Source: Hormiphora californensis (taxonomy: Eukaryota; Animalia; Ctenophora). From it: a stretch of 64,000 bases of DNA. Made by a program: the position numbers and the translations under genes. Positions 4,978 to 64,000 of the stretch are shown in pieces (the first letter of the stretch is position 1; each line of letters opens with the position of its first letter). The notes under the pieces are model-generated. The model made no database searches. It worked only from the letters and a program-made list of their open reading frames with translations, and was not told where the DNA came from. The stretch covers positions 1,116,001-1,180,000 of the forward strand of contig CM035359.1 in the NCBI GenBank assembly GCA_020137815.1, given 5' to 3'.

Positions 4978-15146
<10,169 letters not shown>

Positions 15147-15923: not shown

Positions 15924-16032
15924 CAGGAACAGACCGACACAAGTAAACAACCAATCAGAACTCGTTATTTAGGTCACGTGACTGGTCATCAGCCAATCAG
16001 CGACCAGTATTTCCTGATTCGGTCGGTTCCTG
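15924..16032. mobile_element. MITE family A copy
   Basis: Same sequence in reverse orientation; 8-bp TSD gtgtagat. Confidence 0.9.
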
Positions 16033-16999
16033 GTGTAGATTAAAGCATGCTCGCCTAGTGTTTTTTAGAGCACCCCTTCCTTTCGACATATATAATTATT
16101 ATAGAATTCTAGAGATTTATCTTGTACAAACACTAGTTTGACCAGATTTATTATAAAAACTGACTTGACTGCAGAGAGAACTTGACTACTACGGATATAC
16201 GTTTAGGAAATTTGTATTTTTTGTAAGACTGTTAGGTGCTTATATTCAATACTAAATCGACGCTAAAATTCAAAGGTTTATACAAGCTGCCCTACCCGGG
16301 TCTTGTGCAGTAGTGTTGCGTGAGGACCCACGCGTGAGCAATGAAGCTGACGCGTGAGATAAGAAAGGCATGCGATTGAGAGAGAGAAAGCGCAATGTAA
16401 GAACAGTGTTTGTTTTAACTTTGCCATTTATTTATTTTGATATTTAATTCTTAACTAAACTTTGAAAATATTTCCTTTGTTCAAAACTTCAATTTGGTGC
16501 TCGGCCCAAAATTACAGCATGGGTAAACATCCGGCATGACATGAAGCAATAAACTATACAATATATGCATGATACAGCCCTATTCTTTAAAACACATTTG
16601 CCGGGCACCAACTTCCCCAGCCCCTCGCTCCGCTCGCAGGAAGCGAAGCGCACGAAAGAGGGTCAGCGAGTTACCTGACACAGTGATTGTGCCAGTGGTA
16701 CCCGTTATACTGGTGCAGCTTTGCCAATGAAAGTGTTTTCCAAATCTGCCAGGCATCGCGCTGATCCTTAGCAAGGCTGTGACTGTGAGTCACAGCCTTG
16801 CCTGGAGTGTCGACCTGAGGGTTTTAGAGTCACAGCCTAGCCTGTGACTCTAAAAACCCTCCGGTCGATTTAAAAAAATAACGAATCCTGCTCGCCCTAC
16901 GGGCCCACGGGCTACTTAATCCACTCGGGCTGCACCCTCGGTGGATTGAGTGATGATGTATGGTACTAGTGCATGGTGCTATCCCCCATTCTCATCCAG

Positions 17000-17491: not shown

Positions 17492-17974
17492 TGTGACGTC
17501 ACCGTTTGATGACGTCATAATGGTGATGAAGTCACGCATCAAGGATATAAATTCTCATAATAACAGCTCACCCCAGCCTGCAAATTCACTGTCCACACGT
17601 TCCCGATATACATTGACCCGCAGGCCGAAGAATTCGAGAGAGACTTGAAAAGATTTAGTGAGACAGAATATCAGAGAGTTCTGTATGAACAATACAAAGA
17701 GTTCTTATCTTCCTCCTGTACAGTTTGTTTAGTAGCCACCCTAACAATTTCTTAGTCATTTCCTAAATTGGCTGGTCTTCCATATATAACACACCTGCCC
17801 TAAACGACTAAATTTCAGCGAAAAAATTATTGTCGAACTCAATTCGGCACAGAATTGTTGTCGAGTTTACTCTTGTTGAGTAACCGGAACCCCTAATACT
17901 CAACAAGTTCAGTGTTCACTCTGGAACCTTTTCCTTTTCACTCAGAGAGAGTTGAAGAAGGGTCGGGTACAAAC

Positions 17975-18083
17975 CAGGAACCGACCGAATCAGGAAATAC
18001 TGGTCCCTGATTGGCTGATAACCAGTCACGTGACCAAAATAACGAGTTCTGATTGGTTGTTTACTTGTTTCGATCGGTTCCTG
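17975..18083. mobile_element. MITE family A copy
   Basis: Same element; TSD gtacaaac/atacaaac (1 mismatch). Confidence 0.88.
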
Positions 18084-18358
18084 ATACAAACCGATATTTG
18101 GGATTTGAAAAGGTTGCGGGCAGGTGTGTGTATTTTGTTGAATATTATAACAAAAATATAACCATGATCAAACTATGGGAATACGTGTACAAAAACACTC
18201 ATTAGCATCCAAAATAACTTAACACCAAGAGAAAAAGAGTGTGACAGAAAGTCCTTGAAATGTATCACCCTCTCTCTCTATCTTCTTATTGTCTCTGTGA
18301 GTCACGGGAGTTCCAGGAAATCAACAATTAGATTTCCCCAACATTATGTAGAACAGAA

Positions 18359-21300
18359 TCATCGGTCAACTTCACCAAATACAAGATCCATAGTTCCTGA
18401 AAAAGGGTGCAGGGGTGTTAGAAAGCGGGAAAGTCGAACTGAAACGGCTCATTTTTGTCAGGACCTCTATTATCTAACAAACTATACTGCTTAGTGATCA
18501 CTGATCACTGTTTTAACCAATACCAATAACGACAACAATCTATCTTGAAAACCTAATTCATCTTACCAATAACGACAACAATCTATCTAGAAAACCTAAT
18601 TTATCTTACCAATATTGACAACAATCTATCGTGAAAACCTAATTAATTTTACCAATAACGACAACAATCTATCTTGAAAACCCAATTCTTACCAATGATA
18701 GCTACGATGTCAGCAATAAAGAATCCTCTCGCGAGATCCTTCATTGAAGCAAGGTGGTAGAAACCTGGTGCCCTTATCTTACATCTGTAGGGTTTACTGC
18801 TGCCATCACTGACAAGATACACTCCAAACTCTCCCTAGGATATGAAATAGTTAGGTTTGGGGAATCTTCTTACTGCTGCCATCACTGACAAGATACACTC
18901 CAAACTCTCCCTAGGATATGAAATAGTTAGGTTTGGGGAGTCTTCTTACTGCTGCCATCACTGACAAGATACACTCCAAACTCTCCCTAGGATATGAAAT
19001 AGTTAGGTTTGGGGAGTCTTCTTACTGCTGCCATCACTGACAAGATACACTCCAAACTCTCCCTAGGATATGAAATAGTTAGGTTTGGGGAGTCTTCTTA
19101 CTGCTGCCATCACTGACAAGATACACTCCAAACTCTCCCTAGGATATGAAATAGTTAGGTTTGGGGAAGTCTTCTTACTGCTGCCATCACTGACAAGATA
19201 CACTCCAAACTCTCCCTAGGATATGAAATAGTTAGGTTTGGGGAATCTTCTTACTGCTGCCATCACTGACAAGATACACTCCAAACTCTCCCTAGGATAT
19301 GAAATAGTTAGGTTTGGGGAGTCTTCTTACTGCTGCCATCACTGACAAGATACACTCCAAACTCTCCCTAGGATATGAAATAGTTAGGTTTGGGGAGTCT
19401 TCTTACTGCTGCCATCACTGACAAGATACACTCCAAACTCTCCCTAGGATATGAAATAGTTAGGTTTGGGGAGTCTTCTTACTACTGCCATCACTGACAA
19501 GATACACTCCAAACTCTCCCTAGGATATGAAATAGTTAGGTTTGGGGAATCTTCTTACTGCTGCCATCACTGACAAGATACACTCCAAACTCTCCCTAGG
19601 ATATGAAATAGTTAGGTTTGGGGAGTCTTCTTACTGCTGCCATCACTGACAAGATACACTCCAAACTCTCCCTAGGATATGAAATAGTTAGGTTTGGGGA
19701 GTCTTCTTACTGCTGCCATCACTGACAAGATACACTCCAAACTCTCCCTAGGATATGAAATAGTTAGGTTTGGGGAGTCTTCTTACTGCTGCCATCACTG
19801 ACAAGATACACTCCAAACTCTCCCTAGGATATGAAATAGTTAGGTTTGGGGAGTCTTCTTACTGCTGCCATCACTGACAAGATACACTCCAAACTCTCCC
19901 TAGGATATGAAATAGTTAGGTTTGGGGAATCTTCTTACTGCTGCCATCACTGACAAGATACACTCCAAACTCTCCCTAGGATATGAAATAGTTAGGTTTG
20001 GGGAGTCTTCTTACTGCTGCCATCACTGACAAGATACACTCCAAACTCTCCCTAGGATATGAAATAGTTAGGTTTGGGGAGTCTTCTTACTGCTGCCATC
20101 ACTGACAAGATACACTCCAAACTCTCCCTAGGATATGAAATAGTTAGGTTTGGGGAGTCTTCTTACTGCTGCCATCACTGACAAGATACACTCCAAACTC
20201 TCCCTAGGATATGAAATAGTTAGGTTTGGGGAGTCTTCTTACTGCTGCCATCACTGACAAGATACACTCCAAACTCTCCCTAGGATATGAAATAGTTAGG
20301 TTTGGGGAGTCTTCTTACTGCTGCCATCACTGACAAGATACACTCCAAACTCTCCCTAGGATATGAAATAGTTAGGTTTGGGGAGTCTTCTTACTGCTGC
20401 CATCACTGACAAGATACACTCCAAACTCTCCCTAGGATATGAAATAGTTAGGTTTGGGGAGTCTTCTTACTGCTGCCATCACTGACAAGATACACTCCAA
20501 ACTCTCCCTAGGATATGAAATAGTTAGGTTTGGGGAGTCTTCTTACTGCTGCCATCACTGACAAGATACACTCCAAACTCTCCCTAGGATATGAAATAGT
20601 TAGGTTTGGGGAGTCTTCTTACTGCTGCCATCACTGACAAGATACACTCCAAACTCTCCCTAGGATATGAAATAGTTAGGTTTGGGGAGTCTTCTTACTG
20701 CTGCCATCACTGACAAGATACACTCCAAACTCTCCCTAGGATATGAAATAGTTAGGTTTGGGGAGTCTTCTTACTGCTGCCATCACTGACAAGATACACT
20801 CCAAACTCTCCCTAGGATATGAAATAGTTAGGTTTGGGGAGTCTTCTTACTGCTGCCATCACTGACAAGATACACTCCAAACTCTCCCTAGGATATGAAA
20901 TAGTTAGGTTTGGGGAGTCTTCTTACTGCTGCCATCACTGACAAGATACACTCCAAACTCTCCCTAGGATATGAAATAGTTAGGTTTGGGGAGTCTTCTT
21001 ACTGCTGCCATCACTGACAAGATACACTCCAAACTCTCCCTAGGATATATGAAATAGTTAGGTTTGGGGAGTCTTCTTACTGCTGCCATCACTGACAAGA
21101 TACACTCCAAACTCTCCCTAGGATATGAAATAGTTAGGTTTGGGGAGTCTTCTTACTGCTGCCATCACTGACAAGATACACTCCAAACTCTCCCTAGGAT
21201 ATGAAATAGTTAGGTTTGGGGAGTCTTCTTACTGCTGCCATCACTGACAAGATACACTCCAAACTCTCCCTAGGATATGAAATAGTTAGGTTTGGGGAGT

Positions 21301-24300
21301 CTTCTTACTGCTGCCATCACTGACAAGATACACTCCAAACTCTCCCTAGGATATGAAATAGTTAGGTTTGGGGAGTCTTCTTACTGCTGCCATCACTGAC
21401 AAGATACACTCCAAACTCTCCCTAGGATATGAAATAGTTAGGTTTGGGGAGTCTTCTTACTGCTGCCATCACTGACAAGATACACTCCAAACTCTCCCTA
21501 GGATATGAAATAGTTAGGTTTGGGGAGTCTTCTTACTGCTGCCATCACTGACAAGATACACTCCAAACTCTCCCTAGGATATGAAATAGTTAGGTTTGGG
21601 GAGTCTTCTTACTGCTGCCATCACTGACAAGATACACTCCAAACTCTCCCTAGGATATGAAATAGTTAGGTTTGGGGAGTCTTCTTACTGCTGCCATCAC
21701 TGACAAGATACACTCCAAACTCTCCCTAGGATATGAAATAGTTAGGTTTGGGGAGTCTTCTTACTGCTGCCATCACTGACAAGATACACTCCAAACTCTC
21801 CCTAGGATATGAAATAGTTAGGTTTGGGGAGTCTTCTTACTGCTGCCATCACTGACAAGATACACTCCAAACTCTCCCTAGGATATGAAATAGTTAGGTT
21901 TGGGGAGTCTTCTTACTGCTGCCATCACTGACAAGATACACTCCAAACTCTCCCTAGGATATGAAATAGTTAGGTTTGGGGAGTCTTCTTACTGCTGCCA
22001 TCACTGACAAGATACACTCCAAACTCTCCCTAGGATATGAAATAGTTAGGTTTGGGGAGTCTTCTTACTGCTGCCATCACTGACAAGATACACTCCAAAC
22101 TCTCCCTAGGATATGAAATAGTTAGGTTTGGGGAGTCTTCTTACTGCTGCCATCACTGACAAGATACACTCCAAACTCTCCCTAGGATATGAAATAGTTA
22201 GGTTTGGGGAAGTCTTCTTACTGCTGCCATCACTGACAAGATACACTCCAAACTCTCCCTAGGATATGAAATAGTTAGGTTTGGGGAGTCTTCTTACTGC
22301 TGCCATCACTGACAAGATACACTCCAAACTCTCCCTAGGATATGAAATAGTTAGGTTTGGGGAGTCTTCTTACTGCTGCCATCACTGACAAGATACACTC
22401 CAAACTCTCCCTAGGATATGAAATAGTTAGGTTTGGGGAGTCTTCTTACTGCTGCCATCACTGACAAGATACACTCCAAACTCTCCCTAGGATATGAAAT
22501 AGTTAGGTTTGGGGAGTCTTCTTACTGCTGCCATCACTGACAAGATACACTCCAAACTCTCCCTAGGATATGAAATAGTTAGGTTTGGGGAGTCTTCTTA
22601 CTGCTGCCATCACTGACAAGATACACTCCAAACTCTCCCTAGGATATGAAATAGTTAGGTTTGGGGAGTCTTCTTACTGCTGCCATCACTGACAAGATAC
22701 ACTCCAAACTCTCCCTAGGATATATGAAATAGTTAGGTTTGGGGAGTCTTCTTACTGCTGCCATCACTGACAAGATACACTCCAAACTCTCCCTAGGATA
22801 TGAAATAGTTAGGTTTGGGGAATCTTCTTACTGCTGCCATCACTGACAAGATACACTCCAAACTCTCCCTAGGATATGAAATAGTTAGGTTTGGGGAGTC
22901 TTCTTACTGCTGCCATCACTGACAAGATACACTCCAAACTCTCCCTAGGATATGAAATAGTTAGGTTTGGGGAGTCTTCTTACTGCTGCCATCACTGACA
23001 AGATACACTCCAAACTCTCCCTAGGATATGAAATAGTTAGGTTTGGGGAGTCTTCTTACTGCTGCCATCACTGACAAGATACACTCCAAACTCTCCCTAG
23101 GATATATGAAATAGTTAGGTTTGGGGAGTCTTCTTACTGCTGCCATCACTGACAAGATACACTCCAAACTCTCCCTAGGATATGAAATAGTTAGGTTTGG
23201 GGAGTCTTCTTACTGCTGCCATCACTGACAAGATACACTCCAAACTCTCCCTAGGATATGAAATAGTTAGGTTTGGGGAGTCTTCTTACTGCTGCCATCA
23301 CTGACAAGATACACTCCAAACTCTCCCTAGGATATGAAATAGTTAGGTTTGGGGAATCTTCTTACTGCTGCCATCACTGACAAGATACACTCCAAACTCT
23401 CCCTAGGATATGAAATAGTTAGGTTTGGGGAAGTCTTCTTACTGCTGCCATCACTGACAAGATACACTCCAAACTCTCCCTAGGATATGAAATAGTTAGG
23501 TTTGGGGAGTCTTCTTACTGCTGCCATCACTGACAAGATACACTCCAAACTCTCCCTAGGATATGAAATAGTTAGGTTTGGGGAGTCTTCTTACTGCTGC
23601 CATCACTGACAAGATACACTCCAAACTCTCCCTAGGATATGAAATAGTTAGGTTTGGGGAATCTTCTTTGGTCTATTTGTTGTTCAACAAGTGTGAAGTA
23701 ACCGCGACAATGTGACTATATATAAATAACCCACAAATCACCAATATTTTAGTAACAGTAAGATCTATATGATTCAGTTTTAAGCTAAAAAATATGTCGA
23801 AAACCTGAGTATTGGCAGCCAAAATTTTGCCAATTTACCACAAAAATCTCAAAAATCTCAAACGTAATTGAGCAAATTTTCCCAAAAATCTCAAAAATCT
23901 CATCGGCCGAAAAGAGGGTAGCTGAGATTTTTGCGGCAGGCCCCCCCCCCTATATACCTTTGGTGCCTCGACTGCTGTGTAAGTGCTACCAGGTGGCACT
24001 TGGAATCCCTGTGTGAAAAGCTTGAAATGGTGGATCAATGCCTCCATACTATTCTTCATATCGTGTCGAGAGGGAGGTGTTATCTTGGAGTCATCCGTCT
24101 TGATATCTCCTTCAGGCATATCGTTCATACACTGAGAGAGAGGGTGGGGGTTAATCAACAGTAATTGGAAGGTGTTAGAGACGGGCATGCAGAGCACATT
24201 AGGGGTCTTTTTATGAATTATGTTCAGGATGTGATGTGGAATCTGTGTTTCAGAAGACAGGTAGGAGGAGAGGGGTGTGGGAGATTGGTACCTGGTGAAT

Positions 24301-25618
24301 GATACGAAGGCTCTGTCGCATTTCCTCTAACCCGGCACATGTACCTATCGTACACATCACCATGCCGTCCCACAGGTACATCAAAATCAACAAGATCGTA
24401 CGCATCGTAGGGTTGTGATTTTCTCAAGTCCCACCGGCCGCCTGATCCTCGTACCATGACCCCACTGAAATAGAACCGTTAATAAATCATAATTTCATTG
24501 AAATTATTTCAAGTTATCTCAATTCAATTTATGATTGGATTGATTGAGCTCGATGTCCCAATCCTGACACCCAAATCTCCAACTTTGTGGTTGCTGCATG
24601 CGCGCCGCGCACAGCAAATGCTCACAACCCGCACTTTATTCATATGCGAGACTCTGCCGAATCCTACAAATATTTCGCTGTGATTCTCTTCATGACGCTC
24701 AGAACCGCCATCACAATCCATAATGCCACTGCTACACATATTATACTGCAGCCTACTGGCTCGACAGACCAAATAACAGAAGTTGTCGTTGAAACAGGAG
24801 CAACTTTGTTCACAAATACCGTCCCAAACAAGGCCAAACCAATAACAGTGGTACCCCCACCCCGTCCCGGAATATAACCAAGAACTGCAAGTGGGATGTT
24901 ACCCCCAACCCCCACCCCACGACAGACGGATACAACAGTACCACTTGAGCCAGGCGCCTTCGGGGCGCAGTGCGAGGTACAGTCAAACCAAACCAAACCA
25001 AACCAAACCAAACCAAACCAAACCAAACCAAACCAAACCAAACCAAACCAAACCAAACCAAACCAAACATAACCAAACCAAACCAAACCAAACCAAACCA
25101 AACCAAACCAAACCAAACCAAACCAAACCAAACCACCCAAACCAAACCAAACCAAACCCCCCTACCCCTACCTAAAAATAACATACCCCCTCCCCGTCCC
25201 CCCAATATAACCAAGAGCTGCAAGTGGGATGTTACCCCCCCCCCCAACCCCACCCCACCCCAGCCCACCCGAATATAACATACCTCATTCCCCAACTAAG
25301 AGCATTATCCAAAGTAACGGGGCAAATTCCAACCGTTCTCGATCTCCAAACCCTGTTGAAAGTCACCAGCTCTTCCACATCATCCAGCCTCTCACTGAAT
25401 GTTTTCATCCAATCGTAAACATCATCCATAAACCCAATAGGGAGGTCCTGAAATGAGTGAATTGTGATAGAGTGGTGTTCTGCCTTGTCTTGCTCTCACC
25501 GCTCCGCACCGGAGGTTAGAACACCTCATCTTTGAGAGCCGTGAGAGAGGGGAGGGTATTGAAGGGTTTTTGATGATTGAAAAGCCCATTTACCCGGGCA
25601 TACGTATGCATGATACCC

Positions 25619-25701
<83 letters not shown>

Positions 25702-28700
25702 GCATAAATAATAAATATCGCTCCCTCTCTCTTACCCGTGACACTCCACCAGGTCGATAGTAAGCAGCATGAAGCCGTGCCCCGCTCACTCGTTCATAAA
25801 ACTCCATCAACTTTTCCCGTTCCTCAAAGAGCCATACAAAAGGGGTTGTGGCCCCCACATCGAGGATGTGAGTGGTTACTGCCATGATGTGGTTAAGAAT
25901 TCCTCGTCATTTCACCCATCATAACTGAGGAGGAGGGAGAGATAGGTGAATGAAAGGAAGGGGTAGTGGGTGAGTGGGGTACACAACTCACAAGACAAAC
26001 TACAAAGAAGAGGAGGAGGGAGAAATGGGTGAATTGAAGGAAGGGTGAGTGGGGTACAAACTACAAAGAAGGGAAAAGAACCAGGGGGGACGAGGGTAAA
26101 AACCAGGGGGATGCCAAACTACGAACCTCGAATGTACTGGGCACGAAGTGGCACTGTAACTCCCATCATTCGTTCTATAGCGAGACAGAACGCCCACTCG
26201 TTGTACATCATTGATACGTAGTCCAGTCGGTCAAAGTAGGGGAGTGCCTGGTGTATGATTAGAGTTTAGAATATGGGGAAAAACCCCAAATAAATACCTA
26301 GGAAAGCGCCTGGTAAAATGATTTTAGGGTTTAAAGTTTGGAGATAGGACAGTGCCTGATATTACGGGCAGTCCTTAGAGTTTAATGGGAAATTAAATAA
26401 GGGGACGGACATGAATGGGAATGGTGAATGATAGGAAAAGTTTGGTTTTGTTGTGTGATTGTGTATTGCTGAAGGGAGACCACTCGTGGGAAAACGCCGT
26501 TCCTCTGCGCCTCTGTCTGTATCTCTCTCGATCTTTCTCTGATCTCTCAGACGCACCGAACACAAAAAGGGTGTGTCTCCACTAACCTCGAACAAAACCA
26601 TTAGATCTGTCATCTGATCTTTGTCTCCAGCGCACTTCCACTGCCTTCTCTAGCAAGCAGCAAACGCGTTCTCTCTCTCTTACTTCGACACGTCACACAC
26701 CACCGCCAACAAAACCATTAGATCTAAACTTAGTCTTTGTGCCTCTCACCCACCCTATTTCTCTCCGGTCTCTCCGCCACTTTCTTTCAGCATTTCTCTC
26801 TCTCTCTCTTATTGAACCACTGTTTTTATGTTTGTGCCATTATAATTAATTATCAAACTGATTTATTTCAACCTAGGAAGTTGTTCAAATGTTGCGTACA
26901 ATTTTGCTGCTAACAGTTTTGTGGGTGACCCTTAGTACGGTTCAGGCAGGTAAGATATTGAGACTGAGAACACTGTATCACCTTGAATTACCGGGTGTAA
27001 AACTATTCTACCTAGTATAGACCATTGTTAACATCCTGATAGCCGATAGGGCACTATATTACGAGGTAGGTGGGTACTGTTACACGGCACAGCTCCGTTT
27101 TGCACCAACTCAATCTACTAGCTCGATCAAACCATTGCATCCTCCCGTAAGCCGCTCCCAAACAGCTAAACTCATTCTAACATCCAAGATTGGACTGACA
27201 AAAAGACAGGGCCAAGTAATCGCTTCACCTGGGATCTCGAACGCAATGCCCTGGAGATCACTACAACTTCAGGTTTTGGCAGTGGAAAGGAAATCCAACT
27301 GGTTATTGAGAACACCACGGATCATAGCTCGTATCATCTACTTGGCTATTTTAAAATCTATTTCAAGAACCCTTTCTGGTCTGGATGAGCTATTGCACTA
27401 GCGACACCAAGTTCACTACTGAGCCTCCAGCGGCAGTTTCCAAATTTTGGACCATTTGGAAAACAGTGGAATCCATCATTGTAAAATGTAATGAGGTTGA
27501 AGTGTTGAGATACGTATTTCCCGCGGGCTGCAAGGAACAATGGGGTGGGGATAGTGCATCTTTCATCTATTTCGACGATTACGATACAGCATCCCTTCAA
27601 TACCGCACGGGGAAGATATTACCAGGTAAAATTTGTTTAGTTTTAATTTTCCATTGAACTGAGATTTCCTATTTCATATAATTTTGGTTTTCTTTATGTC
27701 ATTGAATGCATGAAAATGAGGGCAACTAGGAGGGTTATTCGACTCCTACAACCATCCAACGTTTTAGTTACAAAACGAAGTGAACGGTTAACTAAGATAT
27801 CACCCTAGACATTAGTACAGTCAAACCTCGATTTACCGTGGTCCGTGAATTTATCCTTCCCCCGAGGCCCGAAAAGCCCGATAAAGATAGATAGACTGTA
27901 ATATAACTCACCTGGGTGTAAGTTTTGTACTCTATCAGTTTCTCAGTTCCCCTGTGCAACAGTCCAATGTGTGGGTCTGCTCCGAAAATTTGCTGAAAAG
28001 ACATCATTATCTTGTCAGTAACGATAGCATATTACACGTTATGTCCATATTATAATCAGATATATATCTTATTACTTTTGACGCACACATCGTGTTAGCT
28101 TGACTAATATACAAAGAGAAATTGAACCCGTGGAATGGCTATTACACGATTGCGCATGGAAATAACCCTCTCTCACCTCGCCCTTGCACTGCAAGATAAG
28201 TCGTAGCACACCGTGAGCTGCTGGATGTTGAGGACCAAAGTTCATCGTCACCAGCTTCTCGTCTGGAGATTTGTACTCTGCCTTAGACATATCCTGAAAC
28301 ACATTAAAGGGGTTACACGTGTTCCGTCGTGTAAGATGTTGAAATCTAAGTTTTTTGATTAACAAATTGTGAAAACTTACTCGTTGAGTCTCACGAGCTA
28401 ATAAAACAATTAGGAAAACTAATCAATTAGAAACTAATTAATAAACAAGTAATTAACTCACCGGTTAGAAACTGTTTAATTAATAACTAATTAACTTACC
28501 GGTTCGTCCACAGGGAAGAAATCCTCTTCATATCCTCCAATGGGAAGCTCCCGACGATAGCCCTGTTGGGGATCAGGGGCAGCGGCCTTCTCCAAATTAG
28601 CCGGGGCCCATCTGAACAAACACCTAGAAAGAGAATTGGGATCACAATGGGATTAGTTGTAAAGTATATTTCAACTAGAAATACTTTTATTACAAAACAT

Positions 28701-30603: not shown

Positions 30604-46566
<15,963 letters not shown>

Positions 46567-49999: not shown

Positions 50000-50108
50000 C
50001 AGGAACCGACCGACACAAGTAAACAACCAATCAGAACTCGTTATTTAGGTCACGTGACTGGTTATCAGCCAATCAGGGACCAGTTTTTCCTGATTCGGTC
50101 GGTTCCTG
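50000..50108. mobile_element. MITE family A copy
   Basis: Full TIRs; 8-bp TSD acagatat. Confidence 0.9.
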
Positions 50109-51293
50109 ACAGATATATAATATATTTTCAGATTATTTATAGACTCTCTCTCTCTAAACCTGCAAAAACAACAACACTTTATCAGGGGGGTATCCTGTGT
50201 GAAAACACACTGCTGACACATATAAAAGTTTTATAATAAAACATCACATGTGGCTAATATATTGTATTTTAGAGCTTTATATATATTCTCACAGCAAGAT
50301 GACAGTGTTTGTTAAAAAAACTTGATTCTTCTTTATAAAACTCTCAAAAAACTTCTGGGAACATTATACACGGTCGCTTGTAGTGGGAAAACGGTAATGA
50401 AAAACGAAGATACAGTAAGACGACGCGCAACCGTGGCCAATCAGTACGCTAGTACGTGCTGACACATGAACTTTTTGCTGCGCGTTATGTAACGTGTGTG
50501 TCTCATTACTGTATTTCGCGATACCGTATTTTGACTGCAAGCAGCACTGATATTGTTGTCTAAGGACGTTTGAGGAACTAAAAGTTGAAAAATGGTAGGT
50601 TAAACGGGTTAAACCTTGATTTACCAGACTTCTCGGGGGAATGGTTTTTGCACAGAATATTTAGGTGAAATTTTGTTAATTTCCTGTGACCAGTAAATCG
50701 AGGTTCCGGTAAATCGAGGTTTGACTGTTCTAACCCTCCGCACAAAACAGAGTCTAGCTAGACAAGTATAATGAAGATCTGAGAGAAGTACCAGAACGGT
50801 TATCTAAAACTTCAAATAAAAAACACACACTTACAACATACTATATATATATCGCCCATTTTTTAACTCTCAACTAAAACAATATATAGCTTTTTGTTAT
50901 TTACAAATTTTCAAAAGATATGCATTACGTGTTCGTGATAAAACATGATAATCCGTGAAGCTAAAACACAAACCAAGATCGATTCACATTACACGAACGC
51001 CGAACTCGCAATACAGCTCAATAATGTCTGCGTTTGGACTACAACCGGACCCCGATTTACCGGGATTCTCGGGGGAAAGGGATTTGACTGGTAAATCGGG
51101 GTCCGACTGTAAAAAACTGCCGTGTTCATCCCACTTCATAATGTCTTCACAAATTGAACAGATCGTGTAAAACAGTGTTCCCATCGCGGTGGTCTCAGTT
51201 TCCTATACTTCCTCCATTAACAACCGGATATGTATCTCTGTTTGTGAAAATACACTTCATGAAGCTGCAAACATTATGACATCCTCTCTTTTC

Positions 51294-57246
<5,953 letters not shown>

Positions 57247-58252: not shown

Positions 58253-59108
58253 CAGTCGGACCCCGATTTAACGGCCCCCGATTTAGCGGCACCCCGATTT
58301 AACGGCAGGATAAATTTCCCCCAAAAATTTTTTGAAATTTTTTTTTGAAAATTTTTTGAAAATTTTTCAAAGGTGTATTAACCACGTCCGAATCGTGTTT
58401 CGAATCGGTGAATCTTATTGCATGTCTTGCCGGTAATTAGACGGTTCGAAACGAACAGATATGTGATCCCCATGAGGCCCATCGAATCGCAATTTTGACG
58501 CTTGGTAAACTTAACTGGTCCCATGGGGATCACGTATCAGTTCGTTTCGAACCGTCTAATTAGCGACAGGACGTGCGATAAGATGCACTGATTAGAAACA
58601 CGATTCGGACGTGGTTGATATACCTTTGAAAAATTTTCATAACTTTTTTTGCAAAATTTTACAGAATGATTGTCATTGCTTTGATCGGTGCTCCCCATGA
58701 ATTTTCAGAGAAAAAGATATTTTGAAATTCGAATTCTTCCTCACCCCGCTTAAAGTGCCCCGATTCGGCATGGTATCACGTATCGGTTCGTTTCGAACCG
58801 TCTAATTAGCAGCAAGACATGCGATAAGATGCACTGGTTCAATAAACGATTCGGACATGGTTGTACCTTAGAAAATTTTTATAACTTTTTTTGATTTTAA
58901 AAAAAATTATTTTCTTTTTCTAATCAGAAATGATCATGTAATCAATACATGGACATTGCATTTAACACTTAGAGGTGTTTTAGTATAGCATTTTGGACAA
59001 AAATAGGGTTTTATGGACCAAATATGCTCTACCCCGATTTAACGGACACCCCGATTTAACGGACAAAACCCTTTCCCCCGAGGGTGCCGTTAAATCGGGG
59101 TCCGACTG
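58253..59108. mobile_element. Tc1/mariner-like non-autonomous element (family B), copy 1
   Basis: TA|cagtcggacccc..gatttaacgg ... ccgttaaatcggggtccgactg|TA. Confidence 0.88.
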
Positions 59109-59222
59109 TATTGTGTGTCTACGAGTACTAATAATTCTCCCAGACCGAAATATTCCAAACTTGGATAATTCTACAAATTCACTCAATCGTTTTGAAAACA
59201 ACCTTTCTAAACTTTTTGAAAA

Positions 59223-62649: not shown

Positions 62650-63496
62650 CAGTCGGACCCCGATTTAACGGCCCCCGATTTAGCGGCACCCCGATTTAAC
62701 GGCAGGATAAATTTCCCCCAAAAATTTTTTTTGGAATTTTTTTGAAAATTTTTGAAAATTTTTCAAAGGTATATCAACCACGTCCGAATCGTGTTTCGAA
62801 TCGGTGCATCTTATTGCATGTCTTGCCGGTAATTAGACGGTTCGAACAGATATGTGATCCCCATGAGACCCATCGAATCGCAATTTTGACACTTGTTAAA
62901 CTGGCTCCATGGGGATCACGTATCAGATCGTTTCGAACCGTCTAATTAGCGACAGGACGTGCGATAAGATGCACTGATTCGAAACACGATTCGGACGTGG
63001 TTGATATACCTTTGAAAAATTTTCATAAACTTTTTTTGCAAAATTTTACAGAATGATTGGTAATGCTTTGATCGGTGCTCCCCATGAATTTTCAGAGAAA
63101 AAGATATTTTAAATTCAAATTCTTCCTCACCCCGCTTAAAGTGCCCCGATTCGGCATGGTATCACGTATCGGTTCGTTTCGAACCGTCTAATTAGCGACA
63201 GGAGATGCGATAAGATGCACTGATTCGATAAACGATTCGGACGTGGTTGATATACATAGTACCTTAGAAATTTTTATAACTTTTTTTGAAAATTTTGAAT
63301 TTTTTTTCTAATCAGAAATGATCATGTAATCAATTCATGGACATTGCATTTAACACTTAGAGGTGTTTTAGTATAGCATTTTGGACAAAAATAGGGTTTT
63401 ATAGGCCAAATATGCTCTACCCCGATTTAACGGACACCCCGATTTAACGGACAAAACTCTTTCCCCCGAGGGTGCCGTTAAATCGGGGTCCGACTG
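62650..63496. mobile_element. Family B element, copy 2
   Basis: Near-identical to 58253-59108, with TA TSD. Short derivatives with related ends occur near 27818, 46232, 50610 and 51042. Confidence 0.88.
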
Positions 63497-64000
63497 TACC
63501 ACTTTTCATATAAGTTCATAAGTTCATTTTAGTCAGGGCATATATGATGGCATGGTGCCAAAAAATGCTGAAAAAGGACATAATTGTTATCAAGCTAATT
63601 CCACTTCTAGTAGGCTCTAATAGGTCCCTAGAAACACCAAAAAAATTGGCCGCGGTTTTATCAATGAAGAAGTTGGGTTTTTCGGCCACGCCCTTTTACC
63701 CATGTTTTTAGCCTTCTGGCGAAAACCAAAACAGGGCTTAGGAAAGGAGTAGAGGCAAATCTAAGGACACTAAAATGTGTAGCGTCCTCGCATTAGTGGG
63801 GGTAGGTGCGGAAATTAATTCTCTATCTCTACGGCTATAGCCACTCTGGAGTGGTTTAGAGACTTTTCACTGGTGCCATTTTGTTCAGAAGAAAAAGTTA
63901 AATCTAAGAGTTGTGAAGAAATTTATGGTCTATCTCTAACCGTTCTGTGGATATTTGCGATCAAAGTATGCCAACTTACTCATTTTTTGGCATTTTAGGC

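Follow-up and report, generated by a model that had tools for sequence, protein, structure and literature searches.

The stretch of DNA analysed here (the window; 64,000 nt of Hormiphora californensis contig CM035359.1, assembly GCA_020137815.1, positions 1,116,001 to 1,180,000) carries the essential complex I gene NDUFS2 on its minus strand, and one intron of this gene contains a 76-bp minisatellite that copies the boundary between the intron and the penultimate exon. The nearest named protein is NDUFS2 of Mnemiopsis leidyi (80.6% over 444 residues), followed by one dipteran and two sponge proteins at 65–69%, all of these values being rough tblastn means. In window coordinates, the upstream exon (23958–24131, 174 nt) and the penultimate exon (18693–18834, 142 nt) match the Pfam domain Complex1_49kDa (PF00346) at contiguous profile positions, 155–212 and 213–259, respectively. 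The end of the upstream exon coincides with the loose end of RNA contigs in two read runs (X7 and X8), the penultimate exon is joined to its neighbours in RNA contigs, and the coding part of the last exon (18360–18396) is placed by RNA joints that skip 296–297 nt. The intron between the first two of these exons (23957–18835) is 5123 nt long and begins with a unique 5′ part of 289 nt (23669–23957, donor at 23957).

Tandem Repeats Finder (TRF) placed the minisatellite at 18794–23668, with a period of 76, 64.0 copies and 99% matches. Each unit consists of the last 35–39 nt of the intron and the first 37–41 nt of the exon, and on the minus strand 64 acceptors with exon starts succeed one another from 23631 down to 18834, bearing out the 64 copies of 37 exonic plus 39 intronic nt reported in a preliminary description of this DNA. 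The acceptor AG is kept in 64/64 copies, indicating that the units carry splice signals. The AG in use, judged from sequence and RNA junctions, is that of the last copy (18836–18835); it closes a functional 3′ splice region (18835–18873) with a predicted branch-point-like CTAAC at 18854–18850, and opens the sole complete copy of the exon. The other 63 acceptors are decoys, the first of which (AG at 23633–23632) follows the donor after 326 nt. Fifty of the 63 full units are identical, the others being one small change off (six with a g/a variant, three with one additional nt, three with two additional nt and one with an exonic substitution). Such homogenisation within the cluster, and a unit that spans the intron–exon boundary, characterise mirage minisatellites. 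The g/a variant, which had been put forward as an index of units in lariat or pre-mRNA reads, marks 6 of the 63 units and is located in the intronic 39 nt, so it is of no use for indexing spliced reads. One and two units folded with predicted energies of −13.0 and −35.7 kcal/mol, values obtained without a shuffle control.

Contigs from 8 of the 22 listed read runs (X4, X5, X7, X8, X9, X10, X16 and X17) were aligned to positions 18300–18930. X4 and X5 are DNA runs of two samples from two studies. Summed contig depth on the unit was 33,269 in X4 and 47,877 in X5, compared with 88 and 281 on the unique exon, although summed depth does not equal copy number. A single X4 contig of the unit variant with two additional nt had a depth of 472 versus 88.5 on the exon (5.3 per haplotype), and a single X5 unit contig had a depth of 1,837 versus 281 (6.5 per haplotype). 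Since these single-contig depths are well above that of the exon, the unit is present in more than five copies per haplotype in both samples. The summed depths give a rough floor of approximately 7–12 copies per haplotype if each contig is assumed to have been placed once, and tens to approximately 200 copies (50–190) if contigs of 40–60 nt are assumed. The content of one unit variant differed between the samples (5.3 versus 1.3 per haplotype). In both X4 and X5, a loose end links the unit to the unique edge of the intron at 23669. The multi-copy depth and this junction together indicate that the array exists at the NDUFS2 locus; a copy number of 64 is plausible, the multi-copy state being what the runs independently support.

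Other structures were seen in the same alignments. X5 contains three additional exits from the array, at 18788, 18797 and 18805, one of which joins intron positions 23915–23940 into the middle of a unit, possibly a deletion allele, and one of which leads to a dispersed element resembling that near 17970–18075. X4 shows a fold-back at 18915, at the CCTAGG palindrome of the unit. X17 aligned as four short pieces below 90% identity and X16 had no match, and both were uninformative. In metagenome contigs, an exact 24-nt exon-start pattern matched no stretch, and a protein scan found 80 loci at 63–75% identity, none of them from the source organism. Two candidate sequences were set aside: P0001 is 100% identical to the upstream exon but diverges from the window midway in the next exon and may be chimeric, and P0002 reads into a different intron.

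The remaining DNA run, X10, comes from a related, different organism. It yielded one contig of 235 nt at single-copy depth (45.7), which reads from the exon into the intron end. This intron end matches the junction at the left edge of the array and not the junction between units, so the relative has a single acceptor. The array is therefore likely to be recent and the single-copy state is likely to be ancestral, with loss of an array in the relative as the other way to reach the same state. Six of the eight runs (X4, X5, X7, X8, X9 and X10) carry C at 18793, a synonymous allele that gives the exon GTAAG where the window has GTAAA. With this allele, the duplicated segment has AAG at both of its bounds, suggesting that the first duplication was microhomology-mediated. 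The founding event would have been a single tandem duplication at the 3-nt AAG shared by the left edge and the 18793-C exon allele, and the array may subsequently have grown and been homogenised through slippage or unequal exchange.

Transcripts were represented by metatranscriptome contigs of three studies (X7, X8 and X9), at depths of 5–20. In X8, one contig (375 nt, depth 11, 7 differences) crosses the whole penultimate exon into the last exon, and its loose end is the upstream exon. One X9 contig (672 nt, depth 19, 6 differences) does the same; its loose end, the pooled consensus of two contigs with an agreement of 0.8, resembles the upstream exon. X7 contains normal junctions in three contigs, one of which has no differences from the window. 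RNA contigs with the 18793-C allele retain the full exon. None of the RNA contigs of these runs covers the 39-nt spacer, at a depth at which rare forms are dropped, and none shows a 39-nt skip or the inclusion of a unit, in animals whose carrier status was not genotyped.

The strength of the signals was judged against 54 introns predicted by hand in four genes of the window, uncallable junctions being omitted, from which a donor matrix was also built. The shortest of these introns is 83 nt and the median 208 nt, so that the 39-nt spacer is less than half the length of the shortest. G occupies position −1 in 47/54 donors. The donor-like site of the unit, GCA/GTAAGA (the slash marks the junction), scores 4.4 bits, a value undercut by only 5/54 predicted donors and reached by 28 of 346 exonic GT sites. 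The real downstream donor, at 7.7 bits, is of median strength. The preliminary description held that the repeat junction turns exonic sequence into a consensus donor. The site is weak by the standards of this genome, and its GTAAG core already lies within the exon in 18793-C alleles, including those of the single-copy relative and of spliced RNA contigs; therefore, the repeat junction did not create it.

Exon definition is the most likely reason why the decoys would be silent. The last acceptor is the only one with a median-strength donor 142 nt downstream, whereas each decoy is followed by a weak donor-like site, of a kind that the spliceosome already passes over within the exon, and by a 39-nt spacer that appears too short for an intron in this genome; the 63 decoy acceptors would then be removed along with the intron. 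Of the earlier proposal that decoys are skipped by exon definition or because of too-short introns, the observable part stands, as decoys are present in DNA and the RNA contigs use the last acceptor, and the mechanism itself is our interpretation. The proposed frame shift to a TGA upon inclusion of an additional 37-nt unit also held: inclusion of one to four units always leads to a TGA after 21 residues, at least 113 nt ahead of the last junction for one to three units, and reading on from the first acceptor leads to a stop after 19 residues. If there is any leak, the acceptor most likely to be used is the penultimate one (+76 nt), which lies 218 nt from the real donor, and the product, having a premature stop, is predicted to be degraded.

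As a whole, these data led us to conclude, with a probability of roughly 0.8, that a real 76-bp minisatellite repeats, in 64 copies, the intron boundary of the penultimate NDUFS2 exon, and that it is likely a recent, tolerated mirage whose 63 decoys are spliced out with the intron. Several points weigh against this conclusion. The assembly has indel errors (a frameshift near 24330), which bear on the count of 64 and on the order of the units, and the relative is represented by one run only. Metatranscriptome contigs at this depth drop rare forms, the animals that supplied the RNA were not genotyped for the array, X8 differs from the window at 7/145 bases, and nonsense-mediated decay would hide any leak. 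The donor matrix derives from 54 hand-predicted introns, and the exons predicted in the window include some of 39, 43 and 45 nt, so that exon length alone does not silence the decoys.

An alternative that we consider unlikely is that the array is leaky but unselected, a measurable share of transcripts being diverted to the nearest decoys (+76 nt) and degraded, so that it acts as a slight deleterious load and not as a regulator. The decoys are identical to the real acceptor, and the distance from the penultimate decoy to the real donor falls within the predicted sizes of internal exons (up to 222 nt). On the donor side of human genes, the nearest two pseudo-sites are used in 6-16 and two pseudo-sites in CBS, according to the portion of PMC1557585 consulted. 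The absence of the 39-nt spacer from RNA contigs argues against such a leak, weakly at this depth, as does the fact that tens of copies were reached in an essential gene in two samples.

The preliminary description also raised the possibility of a poison-exon sink tuned by copy number, in which a selected array length sets NDUFS2 output through unit inclusion and nonsense-mediated decay. We regard this as very improbable. In all inclusion products a TGA ends the reading frame, with 113 nt or more left to the last junction, and the unit-variant content differs between samples, as a sink would allow. However, a regulated poison exon is one whose inclusion introduces a premature stop ahead of the last junction, is seen in RNA and is conserved. 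RNA contigs, in which rare forms are dropped, contained no inclusion, the unit donor is weak, and the relative lacks the array in its one run, X10, so that conservation is not found. Moreover, unrelated genes of the window contain comparable boundary copies (see below), and the three further repeat exits in X5 look as if they arose from insertions or a deletion. The suggestion of a sink thus gained no support, and a small leak is compatible with the RNA depth.

That the array is an assembly or concatemer artefact has hardly any probability left: the window has indel errors elsewhere (the frameshift near 24330) and no array-spanning read was seen, but the multi-copy depth, the unit variant with two additional nt and the left-edge junction in two samples largely refute this reading as to the existence of the array. 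An equally slight chance is left to a recursive-splicing ladder or an intermediate of exon or intron birth, as the preliminary description had suggested. A recursive splice site is an AG/GT junction that regenerates a donor; the acceptors here read AG/GGAGAG and form no zero-length recursive site, and stepwise removal would need 39-nt introns against a shortest predicted intron of 83 nt. Mirages were proposed as a route of intron gain by Ebner et al. (in the part of PMC3087553 consulted), but simple in-frame birth, including intron gain of the Rogers type, in which a proto-splice site is duplicated and splicing restores the frame, is impossible here because the unit donor joined to the nearest AGs, near exon positions 35–38, gives +2 or −1 nt as read from the sequence.

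The array is not the only minisatellite at a splice site in the window. Behind the penultimate NDUFS2 exon lies a donor-side array of 43-bp units (18521–18688, minus strand, 3.9 copies by TRF), two inner units of which repeat the real donor's TTG/GTAAGA. Alleles without three units, seen as skips of 129 nt in X5 and 131 nt in X4, indicate that its length varies. In the 54 predicted introns, a splice site is no more than 15 nt away from 15 of the 17 minisatellites, compared with 3.9 expected (0 of 100,000 simulations), whereas microsatellite and low-complexity arrays show no edge bias (1/11 versus 1.0 expected). The bias survived when the 76-bp array was dropped, when only scores of at least 90 were kept and when intron length was capped at 100 nt. 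A null drawn from the lengths of 33 array-free introns, with units free to span junctions, gave 7.5 expected (p ~1e-4), and one restricted to array-free introns up to 250 nt gave 8.8 (p ~1e-3); on the assumption that every intron was initially no longer than 100 nt, there is no excess left (p 0.10). By TRF limits, 3/17 arrays literally span the junction, and a strict 16-mer scan, which misses shorter or gapped copies seen by alignment, found junction copies at 3/108 junctions; literal spanning is thus rarer than abutting. The bias is to be read in the light of an intron annotation made with knowledge of the arrays, and of a single window.

Further copies of splice sites were observed individually. 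At 14715–14945 (plus strand), in what we take to be a receptor-like gene with immunoglobulin domains, three decaying copies of an acceptor with the first ~13 nt of the last exon occur at 14756, 14848 and 14932 with a period of 86 bp, and the full exon is opened by the last copy (14932) only. In a presumably Dishevelled-like gene on the minus strand, duplicated acceptors with a few exon-like bases precede two exons, at 52938–53021 (with an exon-start copy near 52934) and at 54876/54976, and a 35-bp array (54982–55472) lies further upstream. In a gene that we assume to be PAXIP1-like, a 47-bp array of 36 copies (34632–36331, minus strand, 99% matches) ends 2 nt before the exon acceptor, and every unit contains a CCAG of its own, located 19 nt upstream of the AG in use. 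A 38-bp duplication of an NDUFS2 donor (28427–28504, minus strand) is the third copy of a splice site in that gene.

Elsewhere in the window, two similar candidate in-frame microexons of 15 nt (11032–11046 and 11438–11452, plus strand), both flanked by a plausible acceptor and a GTAAGT donor, lie in a gene presumed to encode immunoglobulin domains and are possibly alternative. A short dispersed element with inverted ends, resembling a miniature inverted-repeat transposable element, was recognised by eye at approximately 860–970, 15925–16035, 17970–18075, 32040–32125, 34110–34225 and 50000–50110, and an element of ~850 bp with common small internal repeats is present in two copies (58257–59110 and 62654–63500). 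Frameshifts in otherwise conserved exons near 24330 (minus strand) and at 5527–5749 (plus strand), as well as a homopolymer-rich stretch at 53800–54750, are probably assembly indels.

A doubtful but possible generalisation is that mirages, far from being peculiar to lancelets, betray a mutational process, active from ctenophores to chordates, by which tandem duplications are initiated at the edges of introns. Such a process might be caused by slippage during recombination or repair at places where a conserved exon meets a highly polymorphic intron in very heterozygous marine animals. If such a process exists, the NDUFS2 array, with 64 copies in an essential gene and a relative in the single-copy state, would be the cleanest dated case of it, and would also allow a natural test, in an early-branching animal, of how one acceptor is chosen among identical ones. 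The array extends a little-studied class of repeats to ctenophores and offers a natural experiment on how a spliceosome selects the last among 64 identical acceptors. Should use of the last site be borne out by RNA from carriers, exon definition is at work in a ctenophore whose introns are short; if the edge bias of minisatellites holds genome-wide, it suggests a mutational mechanism tied to gene structure.

Several known systems resemble the arrays described here. In plants and green algae, tandem repeats become more frequent towards the ends of introns; they are mostly short motifs, copied splice sites not being described in the part of PMC3887541 consulted. The clustering near intron–exon junctions is shared, whereas in the window it is the minisatellites (15/17) and not the microsatellites (1/11) that show it. 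Repeats at exon–intron boundaries that form new introns are treated in part of PMC2812944. Ctenophore heterozygosity is given as 3.2% in PMC8527503, the consulted part of which contains nothing on splice-site repeats, and no report of ctenophore mirages was found in the limited collection of literature searched.

In humans, donor-side variable number tandem repeats occur in F7 IVS7 (37 bp, 5–9 copies), 6-16, CBS, LAMIN B2 and PDGF (PMC1557585, in part). Like the NDUFS2 arrays, these minisatellites reiterate an exact splice site inside the intron, and splicing uses the site closest to the exon, either by itself or together with the sites next to it. The 43-bp array is their direct analogue. In the 76-bp array, by contrast, the acceptor is repeated and the used site is transcribed last, so the 5′-to-3′ first-come scanning invoked for F7 cannot explain it.

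The closest counterpart is the mirage in the amphioxus globin gene BflGb6, in which the 3′ intron end and the 5′ part of the exon are present in 3–6 copies and splicing is normal by reverse transcription PCR (in the part of PMC3087553 consulted); further lancelet mirages occur in Adh3, troponin C and PGBD5 (PMC3902484, in part). Mirages of this type and the NDUFS2 array share tandem copies of the 3′ intron end and 5′ exon part, splice signals within the units and homogenised copies, and in both systems either exon edge can be affected. The Adh3 mirage is reportedly somatically unstable. Mirages also vary in length between haplotypes, as the 43-bp array does by three units; for the 76-bp array, the observations are the differing unit-variant content of the two samples and the single copy in the relative. 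Normal splicing in BflGb6 may have a parallel here, to judge by the normal junctions in our RNA contigs, at depths of 5–20 and from ungenotyped animals. The NDUFS2 array differs from BflGb6 in residing in a ctenophore and not a lancelet, in its 64 copies, in its purity (50/63 units identical versus 81–100% identity), in its essential complex I host gene, and in having a single-copy relative that polarises the change. These comparisons indicate that the NDUFS2 array is an amphioxus-type mirage minisatellite, a member of a previously described class that is unusual in its copy number, purity, essential host gene and phylum.

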